DNA of 62,648 nt, counting the filler, from Asterionella formosa (lineage: Eukaryota), in NCBI GenBank assembly GCA_002256025.1. It is 13 parts of 13 records of this genome, joined end to end, with 100 filler letters (N's around TTAATTAATTAA, not from the genome) between each part and the next. Parts side by side here need not be neighbours in the genome. Positions count along the whole stretch, not along the records: positions 33,846 to 38,572 come from NKIB01013396.1; 12 more parts are not named here. One strand, written 5' to 3'. The translations under genes and the position numbers were made by a program. Shown here one piece after another: positions 1 to 59,225 of the stretch. Under the pieces are notes generated by a model. It was not told the DNA's origin, made no database searches, and saw only the letters and a list, made by a program, of their open reading frames with translations. The stretch's first letter is position 1, and every line of letters begins with the position of its first letter.

Positions 1-139
1 GTAAGCTTAGCCTGTTCACTTTCATAGTATGCATTTATCATACATATAACGAAATATGTATCATGAACAGAAAAATTCTGTGCCAGTTATTGCATGATAC
101 CCCTGATCTTATAAGTGCGATATTATTTATTTGCAGACG
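1..139 (-). repeat. Family B element terminus (...TTTATTTGCAGACG)
   Basis: Positions 70-139 align with 30095-30163; 1-70 is the reverse complement of about 44459-44530; it cuts the Gypsy RT at the terminus. Confidence 0.8.
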
Positions 140-2310
140 AAGCCAATAACCAAGCCAATCTGTTTCTTTAACTGCCCATTCGGATTTAAGTGGATTGACT
201 GTAAATTCATTTGCCTGTAGACGGTGTATAACAGTTTCAATTGTTTTCATAGGTGACAAATAATCCTGAGAAAATCTGCCAATGTCATCAAAAAATATTT
301 TGACATCCGGTAAATCTTTTAAAATACTTTCCATGATTTCTTGAAAAAGGCCTGGTACTTGCGAAGCTCCCATTGGTAGACGTTTGTACCGAAAATTTCC
401 ACATGGTGTAACTTCTGAATGTTTGTGAGGTACCAGAAAGGTTTTACAGCGTACTGGTTTTGTACCATCCTTCATTTCCAATTGATTTTTTCCTACAACT
501 TTCTTTAATTTTCCATAAATACGAGTTTCTAATCCTTGAAAGGTCGTTCTCAATTGCATTTTTTAACTTTTGTTTAGATTTTTGTTGGACAATCACGTTA
601 TTCACAGGAATTTGCTCATTTTTAGCCTCCTTAATCTCTCTCAAATACATCTTCTCTACTAGTTCCTCATCAAAATGATAATTATTGATGTAAAAACTCG
701 GTTTCTACCTTTTTTCATTTAATCTCGGCGTCCTTCCATTTTCATTGTTTTATCGGAATAGCAAATATCAGTTTTTAACTCTTGCAACCAATCTCTTCCA
801 ATAATTGCATCATAGCACTCATTAGAATTATCAAAAACGAAAATTTTACCTTTTTCTTTATTTCAGAGATTGCGTAAACTCTGGAAAAATATTTTTTTGA
901 AGTTTTACTTAACGGTTTGTCCCTGTTTTGCCACTCAATGTCGTAGCCCACAAATTTGCACTGCTCCAATAGTCAAAGTTATGTTTTCACTAATGATCGT
1001 GTACTTCCTGGATCAAATAATATCATTAGAGATTTCTTCATTTCTTTTTCTTGAATTGGCTTGTATTTGCATAATTGTGCATGGTACATTTTCATTATTG
1101 TTTTCAGCTTCTTGGTCGATTTCATTGTTATGCATTGAAAAAATTTCATTTGCAAAATTTTCATTTACATCAAAATGTTCACATATAAAAATCTCATCAC
1201 ACATATGGTGATCTTTACCTATGAATACTCTTGTTTTTTCGTGTCATTCCTGATTCCCACATCTGCCAGATAATTATCATTATTGATTCTGCTGTAATGA
1301 TCCCCGTCGTTGTTATTATTGGAGATTGTATTTGAGCGATTTCATGGACTTCCTCTGCAGCCACCATTGTTGTTTTCATTGAAGTCACCACTCCTCAAGC
1401 CGTTTCCTTGAACCAGGCTGAAATTATCTTCATTTTTATAATTATTATTGCCGTTCCTTTGCCTGTAATTATCCCCATAAGGATCGATAAATTGTTCAGG
1501 TACCTTTTGTTACAAAGATTAGTATCATTAGTTTTTTTTCTCTACTTTGCTTACCAGTACAGCTACCTTTGAAGTTCTTCGCTCTCTCCAAAGCTCACAA
1601 ACGGTTGAAATAAATCGTCATTTAAGTTTGACTCATTCCTGAAACTTGCAAATTGCTTCTTGTAAAACTTGTCTTCCGCTCTTCCGGCATCATAATATAA
1701 ACAATAGTTTTCTTTCCTCCTCTGTAATGGCAATTGGTCTTGTTTCCCCTCTCTCTGTAGTACTAGGTAAATCTTTAGCATAGTACAAGCAACAAATCTG
1801 CACACATCCAAACAACTACATCACCAACATTGATCTAGGCTTAGTAGTGGAATGTGAGTAATCCAAAAAAGTGAGATGCGCTGCTGTTTCATCCACAAGT
1901 GATGCAACAAAGGACCGGAAAGTATCACGAAAAGTATTCTCTGTTCTGTTAACTCCACCAGCACTTTCTCAGAAATCAAATCCCAAGCTGAGCGAGACTG
2001 CCCACGCGTATCATGATAAAATTCAAACCACTCTGCTCCATCAAGTGTTAACCTCCTTGCTACCTCCATTAACTAATGAAAGCAGTATAGTACTACCTGT
2101 TCCACATTCAACAGATCATGTGTGGGAACTTTTCATTTTTTTCTTTGTCCCATTCTTGTCATATGTCATTACCAATTCAACTTTTGGGAACGCATCTGCC
2201 TGTAATGCTGTTACCAAAAGCATTGGTGAACGTCTCTCCAACTTAATCCTCTTCTCATAGACCTTCCCAATTATGGTATACAAAAACAAGAATGTCAAAC
2301 AACTGTACCT
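140..2310 (-). mobile_element. Degenerate Ty3/Gypsy LTR retrotransposon (gag-protease-RT), RT truncated at about 140
   Basis: RT motifs YKRLPMG..PGLFQEIM..IFFDDI..FTVNPLKSEWAVKETDWLGYWL (140-460); protease-like ILFDPGSTRSL (about 990-1030); many frameshifts. Confidence 0.85.
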
Positions 2311-4744: not shown

Positions 4745-4844
4745 NNNNNNNNNNNNNNNNNNNNNNNNNNNNNNNNNNNNNNNNNNNNTTAATTAATTAA
4801 NNNNNNNNNNNNNNNNNNNNNNNNNNNNNNNNNNNNNNNNNNNN
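4745..4844. other. Artificial contig linker (44N-TTAATTAATTAA-44N). Identical linkers at 9583-9682, 14421-14520, 19256-19355, 24088-24187, 28917-29016, 33746-33845, 38573-38672, 43398-43497, 48212-48311, 53026-53125, 57838-57937
   Basis: Twelve identical 100-nt spacers with stop codons in all six frames; the contigs between them fall in length from 4744 to 4711 nt. Confidence 0.99.
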
Positions 4845-6811
4845 ACTGTAATTATCATGTAAATAAGAAATGTTATCCAGGTGATGACTGAAATGAGACA
4901 TATTCAATGTCTTGTCATGTATATAATAATAGCATCACTATTGTGCCAGCATTCTGCTGGTTTTGTAGGCACAAAGCCAGTAGCTGACCAACATGAGGGT
5001 TCATGACAACTACAGCAAATTTTCTGGCCAGATTCATAAAAGTTGGCAGGTATGTGTTGAGATGTTCCAGATCTCCTTGATAGTACTTACACGACTAGTG
5101 TCCAGTACTACTAGTTCTCCACTAGCTAGTTTTCGACAACACTTTAATCTACTTTCAGATTAACCTCTTTCAATGTTGTGATTACTTCAGATTACTTTTT
5201 CTATCAATCTTACCAAATTCTATCAATCCTGCCAAATTACTTGGTCTTACCAAATTGATCTTGTTTCATGAATCTTACTTTCTTGGATTTGTTCTTCACC
5301 TCAATCCACTCTTTCTCATTGGTCGATTTAATACGATTTGCAATTCCAATTGTCTCAGTCTGATCATTTAATCTTGCATGTTGGACTTGCTCTGTAGGAA
5401 TTGCTATTCCATTTACGAATCCCGCATATATTTTCCTGAACTGACCTTCTTGTTCCATGGAATTCCTCACGATGACTGTCGGTCATGCAGACTGTGCAGT
5501 CATGCATTGCAGTGCTAGATATACTACTGTCTGCTTACAGTAGTCGTTTATCCTCAACATCCTCCCTCCAACATTCAAGATTCCCATTTTTTATCCTTGC
5601 TGCGTGCTTTGTGTGCAACTTCTCTGGACAGTTCTTGCTTAGTATGTCAGCTGAGTTCTCTTCCGATCGTACAAAATGTATCATCAAATATCCTTGATCT
5701 TCAAGTTCTCGGATGAAATGTGCCCTGACATCAATTTTTTTTGTCCGTGCACCCACATGTTGGTTCTTTACCAAATAGATAGCTCCTAAAATGTCTTCGT
5801 ATACACGTCCAACAATTTCTCTTCTTTTGGATATTGCATTACTTCTTCAAGTAGCATGGAAATGAACTTGTTCTCACATGCTCCTTTTGCCAAACTGGTA
5901 TACTCCGCTTCTGTGCTTGACAATGTAACTATATGTTGTGTCTTTGACTCCCAGTTCACCAATGTACCACAGATTGTATGTAGACCAGACAAAACGCTCT
6001 TCCTGTTATCAATATTCTTTGCATAGTCTGAGTCCACAAATGATATAGGCCTCAGCTCCTTTGGGATCCGATATGTCAACCCATCATAGTACTATCTTGT
6101 TTTAATGTGTCCAAACAGTCTTTCAAGTGCTTTCCAGTGCTCCTCGTCTGGGTTTGACAGATGTTGTGCCAACTCTCGTGCAGGGTTTGCCAAATCTGGT
6201 GCCAACTTTGTCATCAAATACATTAATTTTCCAACCATAGAACGATATTCCGTCATTTTTACTGGTTCTCCTTGATTCTTACTGAGAAACTTGTTTGGAT
6301 ATCCTGGTGTCTCTGTCTCCTTAACATTCTTCCCAATTATATTTTCGAATGATTCAACAATTTCATCCTCCAACTTTGTCATACTACCCACAATGTAGAT
6401 TTCACCATTTTTATCAGTTTTCCATTTATACCATACGCCAAGATGCTTCTTCAATCTTCCAAAATCCGAAATATTAAACCTCTTCTGTATTTCCAACTTG
6501 AACTTTTCAATTTTTGTCTTTCTTCCAATCAATAAAACGTCATCAACATGTACCACAGCCATCAGAATGACTTCATCCACTTTACTCACCCAGTAATATA
6601 AACATGGATCCACCAAGCTCTGAGTCATCATCATTTCCTTTCTTAAGTATTTGCACAGTGACTTCATAAAAAGTATTGGGACATCGACTCCACCATACAT
6701 GGCTCTTGTCAGTTTGATGCAAAACTCCTTCTTTTCTTCTTCTGTGATAAATCCAAGTTCCACCATCATGCCTTCTGGCCATTCTGCATACACTGGCCTA
6801 TCTGATTCAAG
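4845..6811 (-). mobile_element. Ty1/Copia element: RT-RNase H, PPT and 3' LTR
   Basis: VYAEWPEG, AMYG, VHVDD, FVDSDYA, LSSTEAEY, RTKKIDVRAHFIRE, ENSADILSKN; PPT GGAGGGAGGA (5560-5569) next to LTR start TGTTGAGG (5559); frameshifts. Confidence 0.93.
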
Positions 6812-14520: not shown

Positions 14521-14959
14521 TAACAGTGGGGTTGCCTCCCGCCAATGATCCAGCCACAGGCATGATGGTAAGTTGTAGGGGATAGTTGGAAGGCCCAATG
14601 ACAAGGACACCGGGAGACCGAAGCGGACGGCGCTCAACCTGCGCAAACCCTATAGAGTTGTATCCCGGTCCTGCCACGAATTGAGGCTTCATCCATTTCT
14701 TGAGATGAGCCAAGGTGTGGTCAATGTCCTTTATGGTCAACAGTACTTCAGTCCAAAGGGCTTCGCATACATCCTTGCCAAGATCTTGGTGCAATGCGTC
14801 TACCCACTCCTTGCGATGATCCTGCAGCATGCTTCTGAGCTGCATCAAATTGTGGCGCCGCCACTCTTCAGTCAAGTTGACTTGCGATTTTTGTGTTGCC
14901 GTCATGGGAGCAATCCAGTGAGCTGCTTCCTTTGAAAGGTTGGGTTTTGGCTTCGACAT
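14521..14959 (-). CDS. Aldehyde dehydrogenase, class 3-like (5' part, cut by contig edge)
   Basis: WRRHNLMQL..ALHQDLGK..E..HLKKWMKP..GVLVIGPSNYPLQL..P.AGSLAGGN; likely ATG at 14959. Confidence 0.88.
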
Positions 14960-15281
14960 GTTGCCGCTGGGTGGAAGAGGAAAAGGTGGCACGAGCGGCT
15001 TTCTTAATATACCCGGTACTGTATATGGCTGAGCAGAACAATTGTGAGTTAAAGCAGCAATGATGAAGGCATCATGAATGACAATCTTATTATTGCATAG
15101 GAACAAGGGAGCTTGCTTGTGCACCTGGTCCTGGTACCCTGGTACCTGTAAATGGTAGCAGGTAGGACACATGTTGCAGTAGTGTACCTGTAACCAGGTA
15201 CCGGGTACGGTATCTGGTAACCTGGTACGAAGGACTCCGTAGTAATTTCCATCGCTCATCTAGACTTACGATGTCCGTATG

Positions 15282-15400
15282 TGTTGAGGATAAACGACTA
15301 CCGGTACCTGGTACTGTTAGCAGACAGTACCGGTAGTATATCTAGTACTGTAATGACTGCACAGTCTGCGCGACCGACAGTCATGGTGAGGAATTCCATA
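15282..15400 (+). repeat. Copia LTR 5' fragment
   Basis: TGTTGAGGATAAACGAC...GAGGAATTCCAT is the reverse complement of 5457-5559 plus two micro-insertions. Confidence 0.85.
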
Positions 15401-15404
15401 CCGG

Positions 15405-16226
15405 GTAGCTTAAACCATGCATGGTTGTTTTTAGTACCACGTACGTATGTAGACTAGATGAATTCCAGTACCGGTAGAATATCCGTTAAGCATCATCACA
15501 TGCATGACCGGAGCAAAAACTTGCCGCCAACATCAGATGTATTGCTATCATCGCTCGTCCAAAGAAATTTGGACGATGCAAGTACATGAATCCCTCGAGA
15601 AGACAAGCAATCCAACAATCAACCGCATCCGATTAACAACAAACCGCCAATGGCGTCATCAATGAACTCATTTCGCTTCAGATTGGGCATGATGGACAAT
15701 GATCGGCATGGTGAAAGGTGAATTTCCGGAGTCAGTTTTCACGCGACAAACAAAAACGAGGTGACTACTGGATTTATTTTCATCAAATCTGTAGAGAATA
15801 TAAAATGGTTTCCATAGGTAGACGCCTTGCCAATTTCTGCAATCCCAAGGTTGGAAAACCGAGGGGCAATTGGCGTAAATTGTCTTGCCGAAATGCTATC
15901 ATTTGAAAAATACAAGACATATTTTAATGATGGGCAATATTGGACCTTTGGCAAGATTGCATGTGAAGCTAGGAAATATAAAAAATATGGATATGACAAG
16001 CTAAAAATGATATTTACGCTCAATGAGTGGGCAGTAGGTAAGCGAATGGCGCAATGATAGCTAGTCTGTGAATTGCCTCAACAATACCCTTCTCGATGGC
16101 TACTTGCTTTCTCGTATACATGTGCACTTGGCTGGGATGGCACTCGTAAGGTGACCTTCTTGCAGCGCTGGAACATATGTATACTCGCAGGCAAGAGACC
16201 ACCTTGGGCATGTCTTGCCTTCATCA
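15405..16226 (-). repeat. Family A interspersed repeat
   Basis: Colinear with 43535-44411 and 58300-59083; ends GCCTTCATCA. Confidence 0.9.
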
Positions 16227-16713
16227 ATCAAATCTAAGCTACTAATAAATAACTTGTTTCACATATTTTGCTTTAATTAACCATGTTATTGTTTAGTCGT
16301 CTTTGTAGTTGTTGTTTAGCTGCTGCGAAGCAAAGTGTCAAGTCTGCTGATAGCATTGTCGCCTTGAACTGTGAATATATAAATTTCATTAAAAAATGCG
16401 CTATCAGCTATTTCAATTTTCGTTGTCAATATACGAGGTATTACAACTGTTCTTTTACGATTGTATTTTATATATTGTGCTTAATATATATGTAGCCTAT
16501 AGCAAAGCGTTGTTCTCATTTTTAATGGAGATATTTGTTAATTTCTTCATTGTCAAGGCTGAGACGACTTGATGCACCATGCACACTCCAGTGGCTCACG
16601 ACGACTACACAGTTACTCCGTTGTGCTTTCCCAGTAAATATATTAGCTATTTATAGAAAAGACTAGAATAATCTAAGCTAAATAAATACCGGTATATACA
16701 AGCGCTTAAGAGT

Positions 16714-17041
16714 TTTTTGCTGTTCCAAGGCGCCAGGAGAAAACCTATCCGGCCGCTTTGCCCGCCTGCCCCATCGATGTGGGGTGCTTGGGGGGGGGNN
16801 NNNNNNNNCCCCGCCCCCCGGGCCGCATCATGGAAGGATTCAAACTCCTCACAGCAGTACATGTAATCAGGAATGGCTTTTAAGCACCCCGTCATCCATT
16901 TATGTCCCAGTGTCCGGTGAGGCACCCCGCCCCTCCACCTGGACGAGGTAGTGTGAGACTTTCACTCACTAAAAACCTGTGTGCAGCCCCAGTCTTGACC
17001 AGTACGCAGTCTGTTCTACCCGTCGGGGCGTTGGCCCATGG
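16714..17041 (-). mobile_element. Poly(A) retroposon S1, about 330 nt, with a 16-bp TSD
   Basis: TSD acaagcgcttaagagt (16698-16713) / acaagcgcttacgagt (17042-17057); 3' end CCTTGGAACAGC followed by A's; internal 10-N gap. Confidence 0.88.
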
Positions 17042-17076
17042 ACAAGCGCTTACGAGTGCTTCCTCGGGTACTGCTA

Positions 17077-17941
17077 CCAGTACTAAAGAACGGCAGTGAC
17101 CCACTGAGTTCTCCTATTCGTTTTGATTAGTTCGACTAAACCTATTCCATGCCTTGCGAGAATCAAACTTCCAGGTCTTGTTAACGAAAAGAGTCAGCAG
17201 GTTGTGTCTGTCGATATTCTCATTGAAGGTCGAGATACTGAGATACAAACCCTTTTATGTGGACAAAATTTGCTGGTAATGGGTCACACCTGCCGTACTT
17301 AAATTTTTATCTATAATTGTATGTAATTTTATATACAATTACGATCTTGGATTACTCAGTTTGGTTTTCGCAAAATGATTTTTAAGAATTTTCGTATCCA
17401 GATGAATGTGATTACCGGTATATCACAATCACACACAAATGCATTCAGCCACATTAAATGCTTGAAACCATCAACACATACCGGTATGTACAGGTACCTG
17501 GTACACATTTTCTTTCCATTGTATGGGGGCTAATGGTATGTGGGTCGACCTTGGCATGCCCGTTTATGCATGCTCAAGTTATTTAAGCAATATCAGGGGA
17601 CAGGGATAGGTTTATGACAAGAATCATCCACCGAATAAATCGCATGCGATAAGTTTGTATATGGTTGCGTATATCATAAAACAATGAAACCTGAAAACAT
17701 GGGTAATCCGTGTTCTGGCAATATTTTCGTCGATTGCACTTTTCAACCAATACTTGAGGAGAAACAAACTGCTATAAACTTATATCTAATTGCATAGCCT
17801 TAAAGCGTACATGGTCAGGATTTGGGTCGAAGTTTTAAAATTAACATATTGGCATTTGGTGGGGTCAAACCGTGTTTTTCTCCTGTTCAGTGGGACACAG
17901 CGATTCCATTTTTTTAGTGGGTCACAGCAGTTTTTAACTGG
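17077..17941. mobile_element. 865-bp MITE with CCAG...CTGG termini and TA TSD (Tc1/mariner-type)
   Basis: TA|CCAGTACTAAAGAACGGCAGTGACCCACT ... AGTGGGTCACAGCAGTTTTTAACTGG|TA; homologous to 36977-37840. Confidence 0.85.
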
Positions 17942-19355
17942 TACCGGTACCCTGAGTAGCATGAGGTCAGCCACTGGCTTGCATACAGTGGTATTGTAAA
18001 AAAGTCATATCGGGTACCACTACTATATACTTCATTGTCCTTATGATGACGCTACCATATAAACATTTCAAATCCTAATTGATATAGAACCGTTCATTAT
18101 TGGTTATTTTCACCACTTTAGCCGGAAAAGGAGAACGATTTTGAGTTTGGAGAGTATAAAGCAACCTAAGCAAGACTTGCTTACTTTTGCTTAGGACTTT
18201 GCCTACTTTTGCTTCGGGCCAAACCTCTATCGCCCTAGTCATTGTCATTTTCTTTTTTCAGCCATTTGCCTCGTTTTCACGTTTCCGTGTTTAGACGAAA
18301 TTTTTTATTTATGTCACTAACAAGTCGTGATACTGTCGACTCAAAGAGAGAGTTGATGATGTTCTCTATTTAGTCGTTTGAGCGCCTGTCCTTCGTCACG
18401 CTGTCCACATTCAGCAAAATGACTGCAACTTGCAGGCACATACCGGTATGTGTACCGAGCTCTCGCCTGCCTTTCTGTACGCAAGCAATGATATTACTAC
18501 CGGTATTCTCATCGGAAAAAGACGTCATGTGCATGTCATAACAGGGTACCTGGTACCTGATACTTGTGAACTATTATATTTAGACATTTGAATTGTTACC
18601 AGTATACCTACAATAGGCTCATCGATTCTATACTTTTCAGTTGGATACTTCACTTTGAATTGAAATCCTTCTTTCGAATATGGAAAAATATGATAATCTT
18701 CCTATCATACCTTTGTTCAAGGATTACAATCCTCAAACCATCAAGTCTAGTCTACCAGGTACAGAGTACCAACATAAGGGAAAATCTACATTTATTACTT
18801 TAGTAGATATAGTGGGTCCTGACAACACAAAATTTGGAAAGACTAGGCCATGACCACACAGAAAAGAGTGAACTATGAGCTCGTCATGAGAATGCATGAT
18901 GACAATCTCTTATTACTAGGCACAATAGACTACGCCATAAAGGTACTGGTTGATTCTGAACCAACTGACTAATAAGAATTCAATTTGTCTGCCCTTACTT
19001 TAGCATAACTTGATAGGCTATATAGAAGCTTAGCAACTGTAATTCCCGGAATCTTTTACTTTTCCTCTTCTTAATCTTCCTCGGAATGTTTTACTCCCCG
19101 GAAACGATCCATCTGTATTTGCAAAGGAACAATTGTTTGAATCTGAGCCCTCCATGTAGACTGGACAAGCTCATAAATTTGGCAATCAAAAATGTTTTTA
19201 TTGTAAAAGGACTTCCACTCGGACGATTCATGATCAGCATATCGTTCTTCAGGACNNNNNNNNNNNNNNNNNNNNNNNNNNNNNNNNNNNNNNNNNNNNT
19301 TAATTAATTAANNNNNNNNNNNNNNNNNNNNNNNNNNNNNNNNNNNNNNNNNNNN

Positions 19356-21865: not shown

Positions 21866-21965
21866 ATAGTCAGCAAATTTAAATAATTGTCCGCAAATTT
21901 AAGTAATTGTCAGCAATTTTAATTCATAGTCAGCAAATTTTAGTCATTGTCAGCAAATTCTAAAT
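21866..21965 (+). repeat. 20-nt tandem repeat, 5 copies
   Basis: Unit approximately ATWGTCAGCAAATTTWARTM, head-to-tail with no spacers. Confidence 0.85.
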
Positions 21966-22226: not shown

Positions 22227-23415
22227 TACCAAAGGCAATACACGCCCGAGGTGGTCTCATGCCTGCGAGTATACATGTCTTTGAGGCTGGGTGGCGCGAG
22301 TAGGTTGACCATACGAGTGGCGCCCCAAGAAGGCATGTAGCCACCGAGAAGGGTATTGCTGAGGCAATTCACAAACTAGCTATCGTCGCACCAGTCGCTT
22401 ACCTACGCCAGCCCACTCATCGAGTGTAAATGTCAATTTTAGCTCGCTATAGCCCATCATATAAAATATGTTTTGTATATTTCCTATCTTCACATCGAAA
22501 TTGGCAATGGGTCCGATATTGCCAATCATTAAAATGTATTTTGTTTATTTCCTGGTATCTTCGCATTTTGGCATTACAATTTGTAGCAATTGCCTTTCTG
22601 TTGTCCAGCCCTGGGATTGCCGAAATCGGCAAGCAAGGGGTCTACTTAAGGAAACCATTTTATATACTCTACAGAATTAAATAATTTATATCTAGAATTC
22701 ACCTCGTTTCTGTTTGTCTCCTGAAAAGTGGACTCCGGCAACTCACCTTTCACCATGCCGATCGTTGTCCATCATTACCGGTTTAAAGCGAAATCAGTTC
22801 AGTGATGACGCCAGTAGCGATTCATTGTCTAACGGATGCGGTTGGTTGTTGGATTGCTTGTCTTCTCGAGGGATTCATGTAGTGGCATCGTCCATATTTC
22901 GTTGGACAAGGGATGATAGCGATACATCTGATGTTGGTGGCAAGTTTTTGCTCCGGTCATGCATGTGATGATGCTTAATGGATAGTCTACCGGTGCCGGC
23001 AGTCATCTAGCCTACATGCGTACGTGGTACTGACAACCACCATGCATGGTTTAAGCTAAACTTTAATGCTTACTTTGAACATGTTATAATATTATCGCTG
23101 TAGACTTGGTATTATCTTTACAAGACCAGAATGTTAAATTGTATCATTCACATATTGATTGATTTTATGTACCAAATGCCCGATTTCGTCCTCACAATTA
23201 TGATTCTCACTCTATCCTGCCTGCCGTTGCTCAATTTGGGCTTGCAACAGGAACTTTCGACTTTCTTATGAGCCCATTTTCTGCTGTGTGTTACGCTTGT
23301 TAGAGCGGATTGGTGAGTACAACAGTGAAACACTGAATGTGATTGTAGATACAAAATTGTCGAAGTTCCGATTTGATTGCTTCCATGGTCCGTTTTGATC
23401 GCTTCCGTTGTCATT
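22227..23415 (+). repeat. Family A interspersed repeat, longest copy
   Basis: Reverse complement of 43498-44411 and 57938-59083. Confidence 0.9.
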
Positions 23416-33845: not shown

Positions 33846-34143
33846 ATTCAGGGGGAGGAGTTTGTCCGTCCTTGACAAACGGCCAGTAGCCATCAGTTCG
33901 GGAGAGGGCATTTCTCTGCGATAGTTCAGATGGTGGATAGAGCAAATCTAATCCATCAATAACGTCAGAGTAGGAAACGCCGGAAATGGATTTGGCATTT
34001 TGAGATTCGATAAGTCCTAGACTGTTTGCTGCAATTGAGAATAGCTTTCTATGATGGTTGGTTTTCGGGGTAAAGCCTGCCACGAAAAGGGCAGCCGATA
34101 AGAAGGAAAGCGCAGGGAGCTTCGCCGACGTTGTGTGCATCAT
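33846..34143 (-). CDS. 5' end of a plastid-targeted protein (bipartite presequence)
   Basis: Signal peptide LSFLSAALFVAG followed by FTP, an ASAFAP-type motif of complex-plastid algae; SRTDGYWPF block; function not assigned. Confidence 0.7.
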
Positions 34144-34582
34144 ATATGTTCATACAGCGTTATGTTGGTCCACCAGTTCTCTGATGATTTAGAAATTGTT
34201 GACAGCAGCAGGCGCCGACGCCATCATTTTGGAAATACGAGATCGGTCAACGCACGGGGTTAAAGAAGGTGTGGCTACATTTTGCTGAATTGGCGTGCGT
34301 GCATCAGTCAACGGTGTTGTTGAATGAGAGGAATCTTTGTGGTTACATAACCCCGGCATCTTAGCAATTTTTTGCATTTATATACATATTCATTTATGAG
34401 TGTAACGACTGTATAAAGGTATCTATGAACAATGTCGACAATAGATATAAATTAAATTCATACCTGAATATATGATGATGATGGACCCCGATGTGAACAC
34501 GATAAGGAATCAATACTACCAGTACCAGGTACCGCGGACGATAGAATATGTTGAAATTGCGTCCCGAAGCCCTTTAAACATA

Positions 34583-35217
34583 CCCGTATACTTCATTGTA
34601 CTGGACCCCCCTGTACATTTTTCTCGAGTTAGAACCAAACACCCAATAATTTTCTTGTCATAGACAAAGTAACGTGCTAAAATTCTTTTTGTCCTCGTAG
34701 GCACTAGTATATAATTATTTACCTACGATTTTGCGATTCGTTTGTACATGCAACACACAAGAGACGACATGTAGTGCCTGTGAGCAGCTGGAGAATCCAT
34801 CGTCATGTTGTCGCAACCTTGACCATGACGAAAATACGAATTATCTCCACGAAAATAGAGAAAGACACTTTGCTAGTTGCAAACTGTATTAAGAACGACA
34901 TGGAAAATACCATCGTAAAAGAAGTAAAGTAATAACACTAATAATGACAACGAAAATTGAGATCGCCGATAACAACATGAAGTCGCGTTTTTCTTGCGAG
35001 GTGAAGAACTCTCTCGTTTTTCACATCACTGAAATAATTGTCATACTACATACATCTTAGAAAAATGTGTGCTATCCTGTAGAACTAAAGAAATTTACTT
35101 AGGTCCATTATAAGGGAAATCTCTTCATTGTCCTGAGCCCCCCTACCGGTAAGTAAAATCAGTCAAATTCAGTCACGGCAGTGTACATTGGAGGGTCCAG
35201 GACAATAAAGTAAACGG
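34583..35217. mobile_element. 635-bp MITE with CC(C)G...CGG termini and TA TSD (pogo/Tc1-type)
   Basis: Left TA|CCCGTATACTTCATTGTACTGGACCCCCC-TGTACA versus right reverse complement TA|CCGTTTACTTTATTGTCCTGGACCCTCCAATGTACA. Confidence 0.8.
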
Positions 35218-36044
35218 TAGCTTTCTTGTATCCTGTAAGGGCCCTAAGGAGACGTCAGGGACCAAATACCGGTAGGCTGTGGATATGAACAACGATGTTA
35301 CAGTAATCGATTGTAATCGTTCCGACATGAGAAATTGAGGGCAACAATATCTTAAAAGTCATCAGAATCCCAACATAAGAAAGCTTTATGTGTGCGCCTT
35401 ACAAAACCATCCAAATTTGAGAATGCTCAAAGTAGCGGAAATTCATTATGTAACATCATTATACAATGGTAAAAAAACATCCATCGAAATGTCCATCAAA
35501 CAAGGAAGCATTCCAATTAATGTCAAATTTCCTTGAATATTTCCAGGTCGGAACCATGCGGTTTGCGATAATTGCATGAGAGGGCGAGCGTTGATGTTTC
35601 CTGTTCATCCATCATAGGAAACAAACGTCTTAAAGGTCATTGACGGCACCTATCAAAGTTGCTGCGGGTATTTTGATAGCGGTTGTTCCAGCTGTAAACG
35701 TTGATAATAGCATTGTCCACGCCAAAGATGTCCAATATGAGGGAGGCTGCGGGTATTTCGATAGTGGTTGTTGCCAGCTGTAAATGTTGATAATAATATT
35801 GTCCACGCCAAATGTGTCTACGATGAGGGAGGATCCACTGCTTCACTATTATGATTTGTTCACAATTGAGTTTTTGAAAATGCATGATGATGACATCCTT
35901 GGCATGGCCACCTAGTATGATTGTTAGTTTCGTAGCAGATTTTGGAAGGAAAGGAGCATTGACTCTTTCGAATGACTATGTAGTATATATTTTTATAAAT
36001 CCTTAAAGTACTAACATACTTACAATTGGTTTCAAAGTTTCAAC

Positions 36045-36800
36045 TTATCGTCTCGTACTGGTAGCTGAACTCACTGTATTGCATTCTGGACAACTGACCA
36101 ATGTTGCTAATAATTTGACCCGTAGTTGCGCCCGGCATCCTAAGCAACGGACACTATGCTCGTCCGGAGGCATGGTGTTGACCGGAGTTCCTCGACTAGG
36201 AGTACCACAACACAAGTCAGGGACGCGATCCATTCTTTGATGCATGAACCGACTTTTGAATGTTAGTGCTGGTATGGAGGATGGTTCTTCTGGTTTGGGT
36301 GGCGATGCCACCGTCGTTTTTATTAATATGGGTTCTGGGAGGCAAGTTGCTTTCGACGGCAACTTTTTTTGATCATCATTAGATGAGAATTTCTTCTTTT
36401 TTTCATAATCGTGCCTGTCAAATCCAATAATCTCCTTGACACGAGATAAGGCTTGATGCTGTGCCATGATGCGATATTGTTCCAAAATTTCACCATCGTC
36501 AAAGGTGAAGTCGCTATTGTCAGTATTACCGTCATTACCTGTAGAATTGGCAGTGCCAAATAAGTCATCCAACTGATCTGTTTTTTCAGTCTGATTCCAT
36601 GCGTCTTCATACCAACTACTGAGTCTACTTTCTTCATTGTTTTTCATGACTGGAAGTGGCGTACTTTCACTAAGAACATTGTCGTTCGTAGTAGCGTTGG
36701 TTTCGTTCCTATCAGCAACTTTCAATTGATAAAAGGACCGTACAAAACTTGACCTATCTCGAGATGCCTGATGAGCTGCACGACGATCGTTTGTGGACAT
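36045..36800 (-). CDS. Protein with a C-terminal LSD1-type zinc finger
   Basis: 251-aa ORF ending VRCLGCRAQLRVKLLATLVSCPECNTVS. Confidence 0.8.
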   Translation of the reverse strand: MSTNDRRAAHQASRDRSSFVRSFYQLKVADRNETNATTNDNVLSESTPLPVMKNNEESRLSSWYEDAWNQTEKTDQLDDLFGTANSTGNDGNTDNSDFTFDDGEILEQYRIMAQHQALSRVKEIIGFDRHDYEKKKKFSSNDDQKKLPSKATCLPEPILIKTTVASPPKPEEPSSIPALTFKSRFMHQRMDRVPDLCCGTPSRGTPVNTMPPDEHSVRCLGCRAQLRVKLLATLVSCPECNTVSSATSTRR

Positions 36801-36976
36801 GATGGCGAGCTATGAATGGGATAGAAAGGAGCAACAGCAGCACATTAGTGTAATGATTTTTTATTGCATGAGAGCAACAACATGTTATTATACATTCGGT
36901 TATTTATACGATGCATGGACACACTTGTTGCCTTTTTTGTTACATGTTCCACCTATGGTACGGTTGTACGGTACTA

Positions 36977-37840
36977 CCAGTAAAAAACTGCATTGACCCA
37001 CTGTTTTATCCCATTCGTTTGATTAATTCGACTAACACTTAGCTTCCCTCTCTCTGAAATCTGTTCGGAAGTATTGATGGCATAAGGCGTCGGTACATTA
37101 GCATCCTTTTCCTAGTTAAATTGAATATCTGGTTCAGAAGATATTTATATACCTGTACATCTAGACGTAAAATTCAGTCTCAGTGGGTCAATGCAGTATA
37201 TGAAATTTTTCACATACCTGAAAGTAATTTTATATTCGTTGGTGAACACGAATTATCCTGTTTGGTTCAAAGCGAAAAGACATAACATGCATGATGCTCC
37301 ATACATGATACCAGTACATTGTACAGGTACAATTCCTGGTACCTGCTACCAGGTACAATAGATGTACAGTATCAGTTTTGTGCACAGCCATGGGTACATA
37401 TTTATTGGTACCAGGCACCAGGTACTCCGTACCACTTATAATGGTCTGCCTAGATAGATACTGATATTACACGGCTGCACCGGGTTTCATCAATTTTTAT
37501 TTACTGAATTATTGTTGACAAGGTTATGAATAAGACATAAAATGCGAGAAATTTATGTACATCGTTGTACACAACATAAGATGAGAACTCAAAACTTGGG
37601 ATGATCCGTGCTTTTCACTTTTTTTTCTGATCGCCACTTTTGAGCTAAATTAACGAAAGATCGACGTCCAATCGGTTGAGAACTAACAGTATCACTCCAT
37701 CCGGTTTATGCACAAGATACATTCTGGAGCTTAAGAAATAGAAAATGAATGATTTTTCATAACAAAACGTGTTTTTTATACCGTCAGTGGGTCAATGCAG
37801 TTCGTAATTTTTCTCAGTGGGTCAATGCAGTTTTTTCTGG
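36977..37840. mobile_element. 864-bp MITE with CCAG...CTGG termini
   Basis: TA|CCAGTAAAAAACTGCATTGACCCACTG ... CAGTGGGTCAATGCAGTTTTTTCTGG|CA; CAGTGGGTCAATGCAG repeated internally at about 37181 and 37785. Confidence 0.88.
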
Positions 37841-38672
37841 CACCGGTAGTCACCTGGTACCTACACATCAATAGTCCCAACAACATCCTACATAGCATAT
37901 CGACGAAGGCTTCTTTCAATATGGATATGCCGGTACCAGGTATACCACAAGAATTGTAATGGTAAGCAATACTGACGTGGTTGCATCGCTTTCTTCCCGC
38001 ATATTCTTGGCGGTTCTCGCGAATACAATGATCGTGAAGAATTAATTGCAGCGATTAAAAATATTCCATTTCGCAAGCGTACTACGTATCCTAAAAAAGC
38101 ATGTACCCGATGTATTTCAGCTAAGTATAGCGGTACCAGGTACAGACGTGTCACACTTTCTTTGATCATAGGTACCGGTAGATTACCGATATCCTGCAGG
38201 TACCTGGCACATTAGCTACCTGTGTATCGTATATTACTTACTACCGGTATTACCTGTGCGTATTTTTTTCAGTGGTCTATCATTTATGTATAGTAAGTTC
38301 CTGGTACCAGGTACCAGGTACCTGGTAGCTGGTACCAGGTAGTCTACCAGATTTTGATGGTCCTCGATGAGGAGGATGATTATGTACTGGTATGCATCTT
38401 AGCTTCCACCGACGCGCACACACACGCACCAGGGAGCAATCTACTGGTAGTATACGGAGTACGGAGTCTTCCTTTTCTTATTACCGGTTGCGGGAAGGTG
38501 ATCCGAATTGCGAAAGTAAGGTCAGCAAGCAAAGCAAGCAAGGACTTGTTCACCACAATATCATAATAACAANNNNNNNNNNNNNNNNNNNNNNNNNNNN
38601 NNNNNNNNNNNNNNNNTTAATTAATTAANNNNNNNNNNNNNNNNNNNNNNNNNNNNNNNNNNNNNNNNNNNN

Positions 38673-42423: not shown

Positions 42424-43397
42424 ATGTCAAGCAACAATAACAATGAGACTGGCGATGGTGGAGAGTTCGAGGATGATCTCAAACAGGATAACCAGCACCT
42501 CGACGTTGGAGGTTCTAATGAAGAGAATCCTCCTGCTTCGTCAACTCTCGAAGAAGGAACAGGAACTCATCTTGAACGTTACATGAAGATAGTCGCGACA
42601 GCGACTGTGGTGATTGGCATAATTGTGTGCATCATTGTTCTTCCCATTACTACAAAGCAAAAGAAGAACCAATCATCCGCTCTGACCAGACCATCACCAC
42701 CAGTTCCTAGGATTCCAACATCGGCACCCTTTAAAAATCCATCAGCTTCGTTAAGTTTGTTTGAATTTTTGGCTGCAAATTCATTTGATGATGGAACTGC
42801 GCTTTTAAATTTTGACTCCTCACAAAGACGGGCGTGGAGATGGCTGGAGCAGTCATCACTATATTATAGTGCCCCAGACTATATTGTGTTGCAATTCTAT
42901 GCTTTGGCAGTGTTTTTTATTGCGACTTATCATACCCTTGAATATACTACATGGTTGAAAGAGAATGGAGAATACGATTTTTGTGTCGAGGTTACTGTAA
43001 ATTGCAATGGTGGGACAGATATCAAAGTTTTGAACATTTCTTCTTCTCTACTTCATGGATCCATTCAACCCGAGATTGGACTCTTGACAAGTCTTTCATA
43101 TCTAGGATTGAGCAAAAACTCTTTCACTGGCACACTTCCCACAGAGATTGGACTCTTGACAAGTCTCACTGATCTATCTTTGTTTATCAATTCTTTCACT
43201 GGCACACTTCCGACTGAGATTGGACACTTGACAAGTCTCACTGAGCTATCTTTGTACAGCAATTCTTTCAATGGCACACTTCCCACAGAGATTGGACTCT
43301 TGACAAGTCTCACTTATCTAGATTTGGACTCCAATTCTTTCACTGGCACACTTCCCACAGAGATAGGAATAAAGAAAAGTATAAATTATCTAGATTT
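42424..43397 (+). CDS. Single-TM leucine-rich repeat protein (3' truncated)
   Basis: TM segment IVATATVVIGIIVCIIVLPI; S.QRRAWRWL and QFYALAVFF; 24-aa repeats NSFTGTLPTEIGLLTSLT.L.L. Confidence 0.92.
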
Positions 43398-43497
43398 NNN
43401 NNNNNNNNNNNNNNNNNNNNNNNNNNNNNNNNNNNNNNNNNTTAATTAATTAANNNNNNNNNNNNNNNNNNNNNNNNNNNNNNNNNNNNNNNNNNNN

Positions 43498-44411
43498 AGA
43501 GATAATATTATAACGTGTTCAAAGTAAGCGTTAAAGCATGCATGGTTGTTTTTAGTACCACGTACGTATGTAGACTAGATGACTGCCGGTACCGGTAGAA
43601 TATCCGTTAAGCATCATTACATACCGGTACATGACCGGAGCAAAAACTTGCCACCAACATCAGATGTATCGATATCATCTTTCGTCCGACGAAATATGGA
43701 CGATGCGACTACATGAATACCTCGAGAAGACAAGCAATCCAACAATCAACCGCATCCGTTAGGCAAAGAATCGCTACTGGCGTCATCGCGGAACTGATTT
43801 CGCTTCAAACCGGTCATGATGGACGACGATTGGCATGGCGAAAGGTGAATTGCCGGAGTCCACTTTTCAGGAGACGAACAAAAACGAGGTGAATTCTAGA
43901 TATAGATTATCAGAACCTGAATAGTATATAAAATGGTTTCCTTAAGTAGACCCCTTGCCGATTTCGGCAATCCCAGGGCTGGAAAACCGAGGGGCAATTG
44001 GTGTCTGTTGTCTTGCCAAAATGCGAACATATGAAATATACAAAATATATTTTAATGATGGGCAATATCGGACCTTTGGCAATTTTCGAGGTGAAGATAG
44101 GAAATATACAAAAAATATTTTATTTGATGGGCAATAGTAGGCTAAAATTGACATTTATGCTTAATTTGTGGGCAGTAGGTAAGCGAATGACGCGACGATA
44201 GCTAGAGCGGGAATTGCCTCAACAATACCCTTCTCGGCGGCTACTTGCCTTCTCGTATACATGTGTACTCGGGTGGGATGGCACTCGTAGGGTGACCTTC
44301 TCGCAGCGCCGGGGGCGCTTTTCGTACGGTCAACCTACTCGCGCCACCCAGCCTCGAACACATGTATACTCGCAGGCAAGAGACCACCTCGGGCGTGTAT
44401 TGCCTTCAGCA
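43498..44411 (-). repeat. Family A interspersed repeat
   Basis: Ends ACCACCTCGGGCGTGTATTGCCTTCAGCA, identical to the end at 59083. Confidence 0.92.
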
Positions 44412-44458
44412 GATACCGGTAGCAGGAATTCTACCAAGGTACTCCCTCAGTCCATTCA

Positions 44459-47400
44459 TTTCTGCGCATGATGCATTTTTCGTTACATGTATGATAAAAG
44501 CATACTTTGAAAGTGAACAGGCTAAGCTTACTCATACTAATAATCAAAACACCATATAATAATCAAAACATTATCCTATGATATACATTCTTTTACCATC
44601 TATCTATACTTATATGATGGTAACTCTAATCGAAATAGCAGTTGAAAATAGGTTGAAATGGATCGTTACTCTAATCGAAATAGCTGTAGAAAATAGGTTG
44701 AAATGGATTGTAATTTTACTGTTACATCACAAAATCATTTTTATGTTTCTAGATTTTGTGAAGTTAAACAGTCAATGTTCCCCATTTCTATTGTCTCAAT
44801 ACTATTGATCAAGATGCATGCCTCCCTCACCCATTGCCCTTCAATGCTTGTGAGGATACATGCCTCCCCTGCCTCCCTTCAATGCTCTTGATGCATGCTT
44901 CCCGCTTCCCTTCAATGCTCTTGAAGATGCATGCCCCCCTCCCACTTCCCTTAAACTCTCTTGAGGATGCATGCCTCCCTTCAAAGCTCTTGATTCATGC
45001 CTCCCGCCTCCCTTCCTCTCTGATTCTGAAACTCGTCTGACTACTTGCTGCAAAAACTATTTCCTTTTGATCCAATTCTGAATTTGCATGCGCTATTCCG
45101 TTCCTGTTTTATCCATTTCGATTTCCTAATTATACTAACAATGAGAAGGAATTACTCACTTGTTAGCCATGTTTTGTTTATTCCTCAATACTGCTGTGGT
45201 CCCTTTTTATCATGCTTCACTTACCAGAAATCGATGAACTTTTCGCATGATTCAGTAAAATAATGTGTCAGTTGATGATCACATAATTACACATCAATAA
45301 ACCGTTCCACCAATGCCATTTATAACTTACAACAAAACTGTTTGATTAAAATTATCCTGAAAGATTAAAAACAACCATGTGTCAGTGATGTTCTAAAAGT
45401 GTGTCTATATATAAAAAACCGTTAGCCCTAACAGTTTTGCTGTAATACCAACTGCCCCAAAAATTCTCACTATGACGTACCATTTTTTGATTGATCATAC
45501 AAAACAACTGATTGATTGATTAATATTGTTGCATTACTTTAAGTTTGCTTAGTATAGATCACATGCATATTATGTAATATGTAATCGATTGCATTTGTAA
45601 CATTAATAACGAAGCACATTCAGTATACACTCATCATATATATATATATATATATCAATGAGTTTCAAATCAATAGATCATATACTATGCTTATGATCAA
45701 TACAGCGTTCGGAAGCATGTACTGGTAGAGCATTCAAATTGGAATGGCAACAAGGAACTCACCGTTGTTGCACAGAATTCGTTCAAATAGCATCGTTGGG
45801 TACAAGGTTTACATACACATAAGGTGATCTGTGTAAAGTCATAACCTTCGCTAAAACAATAATTGATCAAAGAGCAACAGCTATTGATCAATCAAACAAC
45901 GTATCAATATATCAAAGCATTTGGTTAGCAGATTATATTTGATAACTAATATATATGCCTTCTATCTATGCGTAACCTGACGTGTGTAAGAAATTAATCT
46001 GACAAACAAATTTGATTGACCACACCGACACGGTCATTGATATATCAAAATTATCATCAACATAACAAAACATTTGATCAATATATCAACAATTTGGATT
46101 AACCGATTAGATTTGGTAACTAATATATACGAGTTCTTGTATACGCATAACCTAACATGTGTATGCTAGTAACCTAACATACAAATTTGATTGATCATAC
46201 AGATACAGCCATTGATATATCAAAATTATCATCAAAATATCAAAATATTTGAATAATCAATCAGTTTTTCAACGTATGCTGAGTAAAACGTTAGATCTAC
46301 TGGAAAATCTATTCACAAACGTGGTTCATTGATCCAACAAGAGCATTTACAATTTTTTGTCGACATTGGTGGTGTCCCGCTGAATGCGAAATGTGCTTTT
46401 GAATTGCTAGGGAAGGAGGCAATCATTTAGTCTTTGCGAACCCAACAATTGATCACCTTGGCATGTGCTCTTGACATACCATAGCTAGATTCCATTCACT
46501 CTTCCATTTTCAATCCTTGCTTCTAAGCCGCAAGGCTTATCATCATGGTGTGCGTTGAAGCGTTGTTCTTTCAAGATCATGTGTTACCGGTATGCATAAC
46601 AAGGAACCTCTAAACATGATTTCAAATGTGTAGGCTATGTTTACATTTATAAAAATTTGAAAACGTATAAATTTATACACATAATGCGTATACTATCAAA
46701 AATTAAGCTGATACATAATTCAAATATATACAAAGCATGAGGATATCATTGTTTTCCACGACCTGATGTACTGTTTTTGATTTTTTCCGCATCAATTCTT
46801 GTACCTTCAAGTAACTGATTTAATTAACCCATCAATTAGCGGGAGTCATACAACAATTTTCATATTGTACAATTCATGAAATTTTTTTACTGGTAGATGA
46901 ATCGCTCGAATCAATCTTTATGAATTACAGATCATACCTCCTGGTTAGAAATGATTGCCAATAAATAAGATCACAGATAACAATTTTTAGCTTTTTTGAT
47001 CTTACTTTGAACATGAATATATCTTACTACTAAAAAATTACTGATCATACTTTGGTTAGATATGATTGCTAATAAATAAGATCATAGATAACAAGTTGTA
47101 GCTTTTTTGATCTTACTTTTAACATGAATAAAGCATACTACTAAAAAATTACAGATCATACTTTGGTTAGATATGATTGCCATTAAATAAGATCTCAGGT
47201 AAAATTTCTTTGGCTCGTTTGATCTTACTTTTCGCCTAAGTACGAGGTGATGATAGATACCAATGTCACCTTGTTTGTACGAGAATGTTTTATTTCGTTC
47301 CCTCCATCACCAATAGATACCGATGTTGTCACCTTGTCTGTACAAGAACGTGTTCCAGCCTTAGTACGAGGTGACAAAAGATACCTATGTCACCTTGTTT

Positions 47401-53908: not shown

Positions 53909-54711
53909 GGCCATTGCTAACGGTGGACCAAAACGCCAACCAAACAGTGTTTTGGTTTCGGCAACCCTTTAAAAACGATGCTATCGGGTGTGAAAAAAAC
54001 AACGCAAACGCATAACATTTAGGGGATTCCGTGCCCATATCCCAATAAGTTACCCAAACGCATTACGTTTAGGTATTTTTCTTCCAAAGTTATCTAAACG
54101 TAGGATTCCATATTGACTACTTTGAATGTAGGCACTAGAAACCCAATTATAATCGTCATAGAATCACTACATATAGGATGCATCATTTATATCATATATT
54201 TATACAAAGATAGCTAAAAATGGTACTCTAGTACAAGGCACCAGGGTACCCACTGGCAAGAACAACAACAATAACAGCAACAACAACAAATCATCGCTGA
54301 TTTCACCACAATCAACATGTCGTCAAATCCTCATTTCACCAACATGGCACACATGTTGTTGTTGTGAACCCGGTAATATGTACTCGGAGTATAGTACATT
54401 GACAACACTATAGTATATATACATACCAGTGTGTAGTTGGATGACAACACAGCAGCATCGCTCAAATTGTGGGAAAAACTAACTAATTCCCAAATAGGAA
54501 TAATAATATTTCATTCATAAAATTAGTCTAATAGAAAAATTACTTTTTTAAATTGATTTTGTCATCCTATGTCACAGTAGATGGGTGATTGACAACATTT
54601 AGGATTTGCCAAAAACCGATAGCATCGTTTTTGCGTCAGTCTGACCAAATCCAAAACCAATCTAAAAGTAAGTTTTTGGGTTTTCGTTTGGGTCAATGGT
54701 TAGCAATGGCC
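53909..54711. mobile_element. 803-bp PIF/Harbinger-type (Tourist-like) MITE
   Basis: Perfect 13-bp TIR GGCCATTGCTAAC / GTTAGCAATGGCC with TAA TSD (53906-53908, 54712-54714). Confidence 0.9.
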
Positions 54712-57937: not shown

Positions 57938-59083
57938 AACGATGGAAGCAATAAAAACGGACCATGGAAGCAGCCAAGAACCAAATCGGAAATTCGACAA
58001 ATAGTATCTACATTCCACATTCAGTGTTTCACTGTTGTTGTACTCACCGATCTGCCTGCTCTAACTACCGGTAGCATAACAAGCAGCAGACGATGTTATC
58101 AAACGAAAGTCGAAAGGTCCCAATTGCAAGCCCGAATTGAGTAACGGCAGGCAGTATAGAGTGAGAAGTATAATTGAGAGGACGAAATCGGGTATACGTA
58201 AAATCAATGAATATGTGAACGATTTGATGCTGGTCTTGTAAAGATAAAACCGAGTCAACAGCATAAATGTTATAACGTGTTCAAAAGTAAGTGCTAAAGT
58301 TTAGCTTAAACCACGCATGGTTGTTTTGAGTACCACGTACATAGGCTAGATGACTAGAATATCCGTTAAGCACATAAATGACTGGAGCAAAAACTTGCCA
58401 CCAACATCAGATATACCAGTACGCAATGCCCAAGATCATCGTTTGTCCAACGTTATAGATGAAGTGACTACCGGTACATGAATCCCATGAGAATACTAGC
58501 AATCCAACAACCAACCGCATCCATTTGGCAACGAATCACTACTGGCATTGTCAATGAACTCATTTTGCTTCAGACTGGGCATGATGGACACTGGCAACGA
58601 GCAAGAACGAGGTGAATACTAGATATCTTTTAAATAAATCTGTTGAGAATATAAAATGGTTTCCTTAAGTACCGGGTAGACCCCTTGCCGATTTCGGCAA
58701 TGCCAGGGCGGGAAAACTGAGGGGCAATTGGCGTAAATTGTCTTCCCGAAATGCTAACATAGGAAATAGACAAAATGTATTTTGATCATGGGCAATATTG
58801 GACCTTCGGCAATTTGATGTGATGGGCAATAGTAAGCTGAAATTGACATTTATGCTTTATTTGCGGGCAGTAGGCAGCGAATGAAGCGACGATAGCTAGT
58901 TTGTGAATTGCCGCAACAATACCCTTCGCGGCCGCTACCGGTACTTGGCTTCTCGTATTACATGTGTACTCGGCTGGGATGTCACTCGTATATAGGGTGA
59001 CCGTCTCGCAGCGCCGGTACCAGGTACCAGGTACCTGGTACTCGCAGGCAAGAAACCACCTCGGGCGTGTATTGCCTTCAGCA
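57938..59083 (-). repeat. Family A interspersed repeat with many micro-insertions
   Basis: Colinear with the reverse complement of 22227-23415. Confidence 0.92.
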
Positions 59084-59225
59084 AGAGAGGTAACCAAATA
59101 TACACAAGAACCTCCCTCTGAGGATTTTGGGGGTCAAATCGTGAAGAGTTCGCCGTCAACCAACCCATTCTCCTACTTCGTTCTTCGTTTGTCGTGTAAA
59201 TACGAGACTTTTTTTGATTTTCAAA

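Follow-up and report, generated by a model that had tools for sequence, protein, structure and literature searches.

Terminal-inverted-repeat elements of the Tc1/mariner type as a probable source of TA-CC..GG-TA scars in contigs of Asterionella formosa

Introduction

[quoted passage not shown] Mover (DD36D), of the pogo superfamily, is reported in PMC7386202 from red algae and from Chromista, five stramenopile species among them, and the DD37D family maT of Tc1/mariner is described from insects and nematodes in the available parts of PMC7325037 and PMC7386202. The present work concerns two elements with terminal inverted repeats (TIRs), copies A and B, and the short TA-CC..GG-TA motifs (scars) found in and around them, in a 62,648-nt stretch of DNA from Asterionella formosa (assembly GCA_002256025.1; the whole stretch is called the window). 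The best explanation, to which a probability of about 0.7 is given, is that copies A and B are elements of Tc1/mariner type and that the scars are excision footprints of such elements. The mechanism is a known one, here with a transposase clade missed by curated models and an unusual footprint load. Neither the scars nor the family were found described for diatoms in the accessible literature texts, with supplements and Repbase outside the scope of the search, and among the matches listed for TACCGGTA in those texts there were primers or barcodes only.

The window consists of 13 pieces of ~4.7 kb each, ordered by falling size and separated by spacers of the form N44-TTAATTAATTAA-N44. The first spacer lies at 4745-4844 and the others follow every ~4.8 kb, so that they show up as a 115-nt 'repeat'; they were left out of the k-mer and TA-core-TA counts. 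Since the pieces are joined short contigs, distances and synteny between them are meaningless, including the distance from copy A on piece 4 (14521-19255) to copy B on piece 8 (33846-38572). The comparison samples were the runs X1, X3, X6 and X15, from four different studies; the runs in which piece 8 occurs carry the label of an algae, freshwater or lake metagenome. Contigs of these runs were placed on piece 8, and depth figures are sums over contigs, not copy number.

Copies A and B and their relatives

Copies A and B are of near-equal length and start and end with CCAG and CTGG at exactly the coordinates that the initial annotation had given (Table 1). Its TIRs of about 26 bp with TA flanks held in part: the TIRs of copy B are of that length and copy A has TA on either side, but the TIR of copy A is poor and the right flank of copy B is CA. 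The inverted repeat of copy B is perfect over 22 nt (36982-37003 and 37815-37836) and, interrupted by a single 1-nt indel, continues as far as the CCAG and CTGG tips (27 against 26 nt; TIR-scan score 23/26). The TIR of copy A is degraded and lies below the TIR-scan cut-off, its 17-mer core having 2-3 mismatches. Copy B contains this 17-mer, CAGTGGGTCAATGCAGT, at four places (in each TIR, subterminally on the right and internally on the left) and copy A at two (with 2-3 mismatches), which makes six matches in the window against 0.15 expected. The TIR 15-mer first proposed, searched with three mismatches, gave eight matches against 4.2 expected, and only the two copies are beyond chance. The doubled 17-mer site is present in seven of the eight aligned right ends (it is absent from the metagenome locus L041), and the subterminal 17-mer of copy B is likely a second, putative transposase-binding site. 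The internal 17-mer of copy B is kept in copy A and in the metagenome locus L031.

The two copies are alike only at their ends, where the two BLAST alignments span 56 nt (84% identity) and 74 nt (76%). Over their whole length they are 60% identical, shuffled sequences reaching 52-53%. Copies A and B are two subfamilies. Copy A, L031 and the second family described below each have TA at either side, and TA follows five of the eight right ends; a TA target-site duplication (TSD) is suggested for the copy A/B family. PIF/Harbinger, with its TWA duplication, was rejected because the 3-nt flanks (CTA/TAC in copy A, CTA/CAC in copy B) form no direct repeat, piggyBac was rejected because the flanks are not TTAA, and hAT was likewise rejected on the flanks. 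The copies have the features by which MITEs are recognised (short, non-coding, many copies, TIR and TSD). With 865 nt they lie at or beyond the upper limit of what usually counts as a MITE.

The copy A/B family is multi-copy in the four public runs. The number of contigs per listed position within copy B is 38-61 in X1, 3-16 in X3, 6-22 in X6 and 2-5 in X15, as compared with 1 in the unique flanks. A TIR-pattern scan of metagenomes returned 44 loci, among them six true relatives that are 84-88% identical to copy A; the remaining 38 were dropped as chance matches, nine of them within one conserved bacterial coding sequence (L036 and L007 were checked). L031 and L041 contain a long form of ~2.4 kb with the same ends, which is laid out as copy A positions 1-401, an insert of ~1.6 kb, and positions 425/482-865; in L031 both ends are present, with TA on each side. 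L032 has the same deletion junction as the short form of copy A, and L039, L009 and L015 are further deletion forms. Scans of viral contigs and of genome contigs for the transposase locus yielded no confirmed relative.

Scars

Among the 8-mers of the window TACCGGTA is the most frequent, with 28 occurrences against 0.26 expected (100 shuffles), and TACCWGGTA (20 against 0.30) and TACCSGGTA (5 against 0.09) accompany it. An unbiased list of TA-core-TA motifs is headed, TA microsatellites aside, by CCGG (91-fold), CCWGG (66-fold) and CCSGG (38-fold), followed by the CCAG/CTGG core (12-fold, 17 occurrences). The initial annotation had named CC+GG, CCA+GG and CC+TGG as the three commonest cores; these are enriched, but CCAGG and CCTGG are one motif on opposite strands and count once.

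The scars consist of a CC..GG core and a TA that were inserted at a TA site. A four-copy repeat of ~0.8-0.9 kb served as the ancestral-state control (15380-16300, 43500-44480, 58250-59150 and, in reverse, 22330-23160; pairwise segments 76-91% alike). In its alignment three scars are private to single paralogues, a 12-bp double scar unit is present in three of the four paralogues, and one complex array replaces sequence of the others (Table 1). In the repeated DNA of piece 8, other repeat copies are without 5 nt at scar 35145 (54 X1 contigs) and without 6 nt at scar 35267 (14 X1 contigs), which are precisely the two scars present in that DNA; these length differences compare repeat copies, not alleles. 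The proposal that the scars are insertions of 6-7 bp at TA, with cores equal to the terminal bases of TA-flanked TIR elements, was thus borne out, the scars being seen as marks in the genome and not after excision.

Clustering is pronounced. Gaps between consecutive scars are of 100 nt or less in 22 of 52 cases, six pairs of neighbouring scars share a TA (0.66 expected), and 28 of the 53 scars lie on pieces 4 and 8, those with copies A and B. A scar directly follows the right end of each copy, and others lie inside (at 17413, 17479 and 17495 in copy A and at 37347 in copy B), both as first described. In the relatives, scars adjoin the ends of L032 and L039 (a CCAG core) and the left flank of L031, which brings the scar-adjoining ends to 3-4 of eight right flanks and one of three left flanks. 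CC follows the flanking TA or CA in seven of the eight right flanks (17942, 37841, L031, L032, L039, L009, L015 and L041). The mixed-orientation tandem array at 38305-38341 has a depth of 250,192 in X1. Scars that adjoin element ends, together with tandem arrays of mixed orientation, suggest that TAs within or next to scars were used repeatedly, and the clustering and adjacency on which the earlier claim of re-use was built are confirmed.

Transposase gene and protein family

The insert of the long form is an ORF (open reading frame) of ~540 codons, read from the opposite strand; in either copy it is broken by a single in-frame TGA and a single frame change. The TGA is located at 1235-1237 of L041 and at the matching place in L031, and was therefore inherited from a common non-autonomous ancestor. 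When compared by tblastn with P0152, a relative of 906 amino acids (aa), the L041 ORF matches residues 35-317 (E 3e-18) and 678-901 (E 3e-44); residues 318-677 are missing, which indicates that the long form lost the catalytic core. A search with the last 265 codons of the ORF gave 544 relatives (E<=0.001), some of them proteins of 850-916 aa. P0005, the closest relative with a core, has 350 further relatives at E<=1e-5; of the 120 listed, three bear a name, as hypothetical proteins of Fragilaria crotonensis. Of copies with a DDE/D ORF, which the initial annotation had proposed to look for, the ORF remnant of L031 and L041, its catalytic core deleted, is what was found.

All 44 aligned proteins share, without exception, the residues D447 (DExGxNT), D596 (DGHxSR) and D634 (WQxxD), with 37 residues between the last two (DD37D). 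The AlphaFold model of P0152 has a pLDDT (predicted local distance difference test) of 77. Mos1, SETMAR/Metnase and Sleeping Beauty make up the top ten Foldseek matches in PDB (best E 5.9e-3, probability 0.99). After structural re-alignment the first 11 rows are catalytic domains of Mos1, SETMAR and Sleeping Beauty at Z 10.8-11.8; for the catalytic-domain entries the alignment covers 194-198 of ~200 residues. Retroviral integrases come next at Z<=7.9. The match to full-length Mos1 also covers the second helix-turn-helix (HTH) domain (model 278-713). Residues ~715-906 of P0152 form a conserved, mostly helical C-terminal region of ~200 aa, which is modelled with high confidence, has no Pfam match and is the part kept by the deleted long form (ORF at L041 1579-2376). 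As modelled, the full-length relatives have an RNase-H-like DDD core of Mos1/Sleeping Beauty type. By virtue of the fold, the DDD triad and the TA flanks the family is filed in the ITm (IS630-Tc1-mariner) group. One of the 44 members matches HTH_Tnp_Tc5 at E 0.025. In a protein atlas the family lies beside unnamed diatom clusters (scores 0.94-0.95), and clusters at 0.85-0.87 carry DDE_1, HTH_psq and HTH_Tnp_Tc5; every protein-language-model neighbour with a Pfam family has DDE_1, which is taken as a lead only.

The window itself contains no matching transposase, as the initial annotation had noted. A tblastn search with ten family proteins found none (best E 0.2), and Pfam found none in ten window ORFs, nor in 81 of the 108 ORFs of at least 90 aa. 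The 27 ORFs left out comprise three scanned before, shadow ORFs over longer ones and ORFs touching spacers.

Origin of the scars

The scars are best read as the footprints of an ordinary mechanism acting at unusual density. The ancestral element, estimated at ~3.5 kb, would have encoded a transposase of ~900 aa with N-terminal HTH domains, a DD37D RNase-H-like core and a helical C-terminal region. A series of internal deletions would have produced the 2.4-kb form, without the catalytic core, and then the 865-nt form, without the whole ORF. Transposase supplied in trans would bind the 17-mer of each TIR and the subterminal repeats and cut the non-transferred strand 2-3 nt inside each end, and the element would re-insert at TA. 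End-joining of the emptied site would retain both TAs and 2-3 terminal bases from each end, so that CC with GG, or three bases of one end with two of the other, would give TA-CCGG-TA and TA-CC(A/T)GG-TA, and sister families with CCC...GG ends would give TA-CCSGG-TA. Later insertions would prefer TAs in or beside scars and element ends, and tandem arrays with a 6-7 bp period would result. A stagger of 2-3 nt is taken by analogy from Tc1/Tc3 and Mos1, and the proposed binding, cut and end-joining are modelled on these systems, on Sleeping Beauty and on PMC4561436. Anatomy, copy number, the long form with its deleted ORF, the DDD triad, the fold and the insertion of scars at TA are observed; the stagger, the mobilisation in trans, the origin of the scars by excision and the re-use of sites are inferred. 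Cleavage at a single end was rejected as the source of the end-adjoining scars, on the reasoning that re-ligated complementary overhangs would restore the site.

Several observations weigh against this account. The overhangs CCA and TGG would be unable to base-pair, and a CCWGG core would require trimming or an unpaired overlap of 1 nt. GG precedes the TA in only one of the three left flanks, and the asymmetry with the CC-bearing right flanks is not explained by a symmetric target preference. No empty site, and no locus with a scar in one allele and the MITE in another, was seen for the copy A/B family among the contig joints listed; contigs of X1, X3 and X6 join the flanks to copy B. The retrieved metagenome loci include no intact autonomous copy with these TIRs, and the link from TIR to transposase runs through internally deleted copies with a TGA and a frame change. 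The Pfam transposase models DDE_1, DDE_3 and Transposase_1 matched none of the 44 family members at E<=10, Pfam found no transposase in 12 long relatives or in eight pieces of the long-form ORF, and a profile search of PDB sequences with the family gave no match. Finally, a second family in the window could have written most of the CCGG scars.

This second family (Table 1) is the basis of a different explanation, in which the scars are footprints but nearly all come from other abundant TA-flanked families with CC..GG tips, the 865-nt family being a minor contributor. In X1 it is covered by 93-125 contigs per position, against 38-61 in copy B, and its summed depth of 1.3-1.57 million is ~5-10 times that of copy B (50,000-286,000), unique DNA being at ~650-1500. 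The DNA around it (34478-34582 and 35220-35425) is itself repeated, with a summed depth of 188,000-270,000 in X1, and the 635-nt element is therefore nested in another repeat; 34 X1 contigs (21+11+2) have joints that skip 643-649 nt at this place and correspond to other repeat copies without the element. These joints are a few letters off a clean empty site and were not used as proof of a TSD. Its CCCG...CGG ends yield CCGG and, unlike those of copies A and B, CCSGG. The 20 CCWGG scars, on the other hand, call for A or T in third position; the tips of copies A and B (CCAG/CTGG) provide it and those of the second family do not. Scars also adjoin the ends of the 865-nt family, and more than half of them lie on the two contigs that carry it, though one of these contigs has the second family as well. 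On this evidence a minor role for the 865-nt family is judged unlikely, and the scars are assigned to the group of CC..GG-tipped families, CCSGG fitting the second family and CCWGG copies A and B. The initial claim that the copy A/B family and its autonomous partner write the scars is therefore supported in large part: both ends of a transposase gene lie in a long form that has the family's tips, and full-length relatives of that gene's product have a DDD triad and a Mos1-like fold. The family is, however, not the sole candidate source, the second family being another.

It is much less probable still that GGTACC-type motifs were there beforehand, either as a preferred target or as a palindrome spread by slippage or repair, and that the elements accumulated beside them. 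The CC after the flanking dinucleotide in seven of eight right flanks would agree with such a target, and arrays of 7-nt units could grow through slippage. In the paralogue alignment, however, the whole 6-7 bp including the second TA arises at a plain TA without adjoining GG or CC; the arrays mix CCAGG and CCTGG orientations, which slippage does not yield; and the enriched cores all begin with CC and end with GG or G, as the element tips do. An artefact of assembly, adapters or chimeric metagenome binning can hardly be credited. The window was put together artificially from short contigs of a metagenome-derived assembly, but contigs from four runs in four studies cover the element, the junctions and the scar array, the relatives come from six independent metagenome contigs, and the spacers are distinct.

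If the footprint account of the scars is correct, one ordinary process accounts for both the commonest 8-mer of the window and a class of 6-7 bp indels, and re-use of scars would make of them a countable record of past excisions with a testable target preference. A transposase function becomes likely for hundreds of 'hypothetical proteins' encoded by diatom genomes and metagenomes, and the cut-and-paste system is maybe recent enough to serve as a genetic tool for diatoms. More tentative, and on balance doubtful, is the wider proposal that the DD37D proteins of ~900 aa are a deep, unclassified ITm clade, abundant in diatoms, missed by Pfam and provided with an extra C-terminal domain, whose elements have been active enough for their footprints to supply a large share of the small indels in this genome and whose scars and ends are preferred for re-insertion. 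Were this so, the family would build its own tandem arrays of 6-7 bp units and leave a readable record of transposition.

Features of the window

The coordinates of the elements, scars and retrotransposon remains are given in Table 1. The third TIR element is unrelated to the others and resembles a MITE of Tourist type (PIF/Harbinger). Little of the window is coding, and its ORFs are eukaryotic, with protein kinase, leucine-rich repeat (LRR), HECT, Mpv17/PMP22, GNAT and copia-type reverse transcriptase matches. The named relatives of the window kinase are all diatom proteins, at only 33-40% identity; with the labels of the runs this makes a freshwater diatom the probable host. The window further contains a gap of 10 N at 16799-16808, a 72-nt tandem repeat within an LRR-coding ORF (43072-43431), and a 20-nt tandem repeat at 21866-21965, listed as four overlapping 40-nt copies with 20-nt spacing.

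Table 1. Elements, repeated motifs, scars and other features of the window, with positions counted along the whole stretch.
Feature	Position	Length	Strand	Remarks
Copy A, non-coding element, short form	17077-17941	865 nt	+	CCAG start, CTGG end; TA at 17075-76 and 17942-43
Copy B, non-autonomous element	36977-37840	864 nt	+	CCAG/CTGG tips; TA at 36975-76, CA at 37841-42
Left TIR of copy B	36977-37003	27 nt	+	17-mer core inverted at 36987-37003
Right TIR of copy B	37815-37840	26 nt	+	17-mer core at 37815-37831
Subterminal 17-mer of copy B	37785-37801	17 nt	+	Exact match; 30 nt inward of the right end
Internal 17-mer of copy B	37181-37197	17 nt	+	Opposite in orientation to the left TIR; ~205 nt inward of the left end
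Scar TACCGGTA adjoining right end of copy A	17942-17949			TA CCGG TA
Scar CACCGGTA adjoining right end of copy B	37841-37848			CA CCGG TA
Scars at the short-form deletion junction	17479-17503			13 nt missing from the long form; junction common to L032
Scar, insertion at TA	43622-43629	6 bp		Private to 1 of 4 paralogues (alignment columns 199-204)
Scar TACCGGGTA, insertion at TA	58670-58678	7 bp		Private to 1 of 4 paralogues (columns 541-547)
Scar, insertion at TA	58936-58943	6 bp		Private to 1 of 4 paralogues (columns 854-859)
Tandem scar array, three units	59018-59040			Replaces ~10 nt of the paralogues (columns 968-988); complex array
Tandem scar array, mixed orientation	38305-38341			CCAGG, CCAGG, CCTGG, one degenerate, CCAGG; neighbours share TA
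Second TA-flanked TIR family	34583-35217	635 nt	+	CCCGT...ACGG tips; TIRs 26-28 nt; on piece 8, as is copy B
Third, unrelated TIR element	53909-54711	~803 nt		GGCCATTGCTAAC... tips; TAA on both sides
Reverse-transcriptase fragment, RVT_1	38-559			Retrotransposon remains on same contigs
Copia-type fragment, RVT_2	6092-6811			Retrotransposon remains on same contigs

Comparison with described systems

Copies A and B resemble MITEs of the Stowaway and Emigrant type in their TA flanks, in TIRs and subterminal repeats of one motif, in the absence of an ORF, in their many copies and in having a longer, transposase-bearing parent. They differ in the partner transposase, which is of ~900 aa and has no Pfam model. 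They differ in their TIR too, as CCAGT... bears no relation to the consensus of Stowaway. The scars, for their part, agree with mariner-type footprints in that both TAs are retained with a few terminal element bases between them, and they differ in that they are deduced from scars in the genome, in their unusual density (the commonest 8-mer of the window) and in their occurrence as tandem arrays.

As far as the accessible descriptions go, the protein family is like pogo/Mover in its DDD triad (44 of 44 members), similar spacing and stramenopile hosts, and unlike it in a spacing of 37 instead of 36, in the absence of DDE_1 from all 44 members and in the much greater length of the protein. With maT, as described in the accessible texts, it shares a D-D spacing of 37 and a TA target, the comparison being one of descriptions, not of sequences. 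The maT transposases are short, unlike the proteins of ~900 aa found here. The best structural matches are Mos1, SETMAR and Sleeping Beauty (PDB 4MDA, 3K9J, 2F7T and 5CR4), which align over nearly the whole catalytic domain; relative to them the family protein has only 8-11% identity, insertions in the core (model 371-713 against ~200 residues) and an extra C-terminus of ~200 aa.

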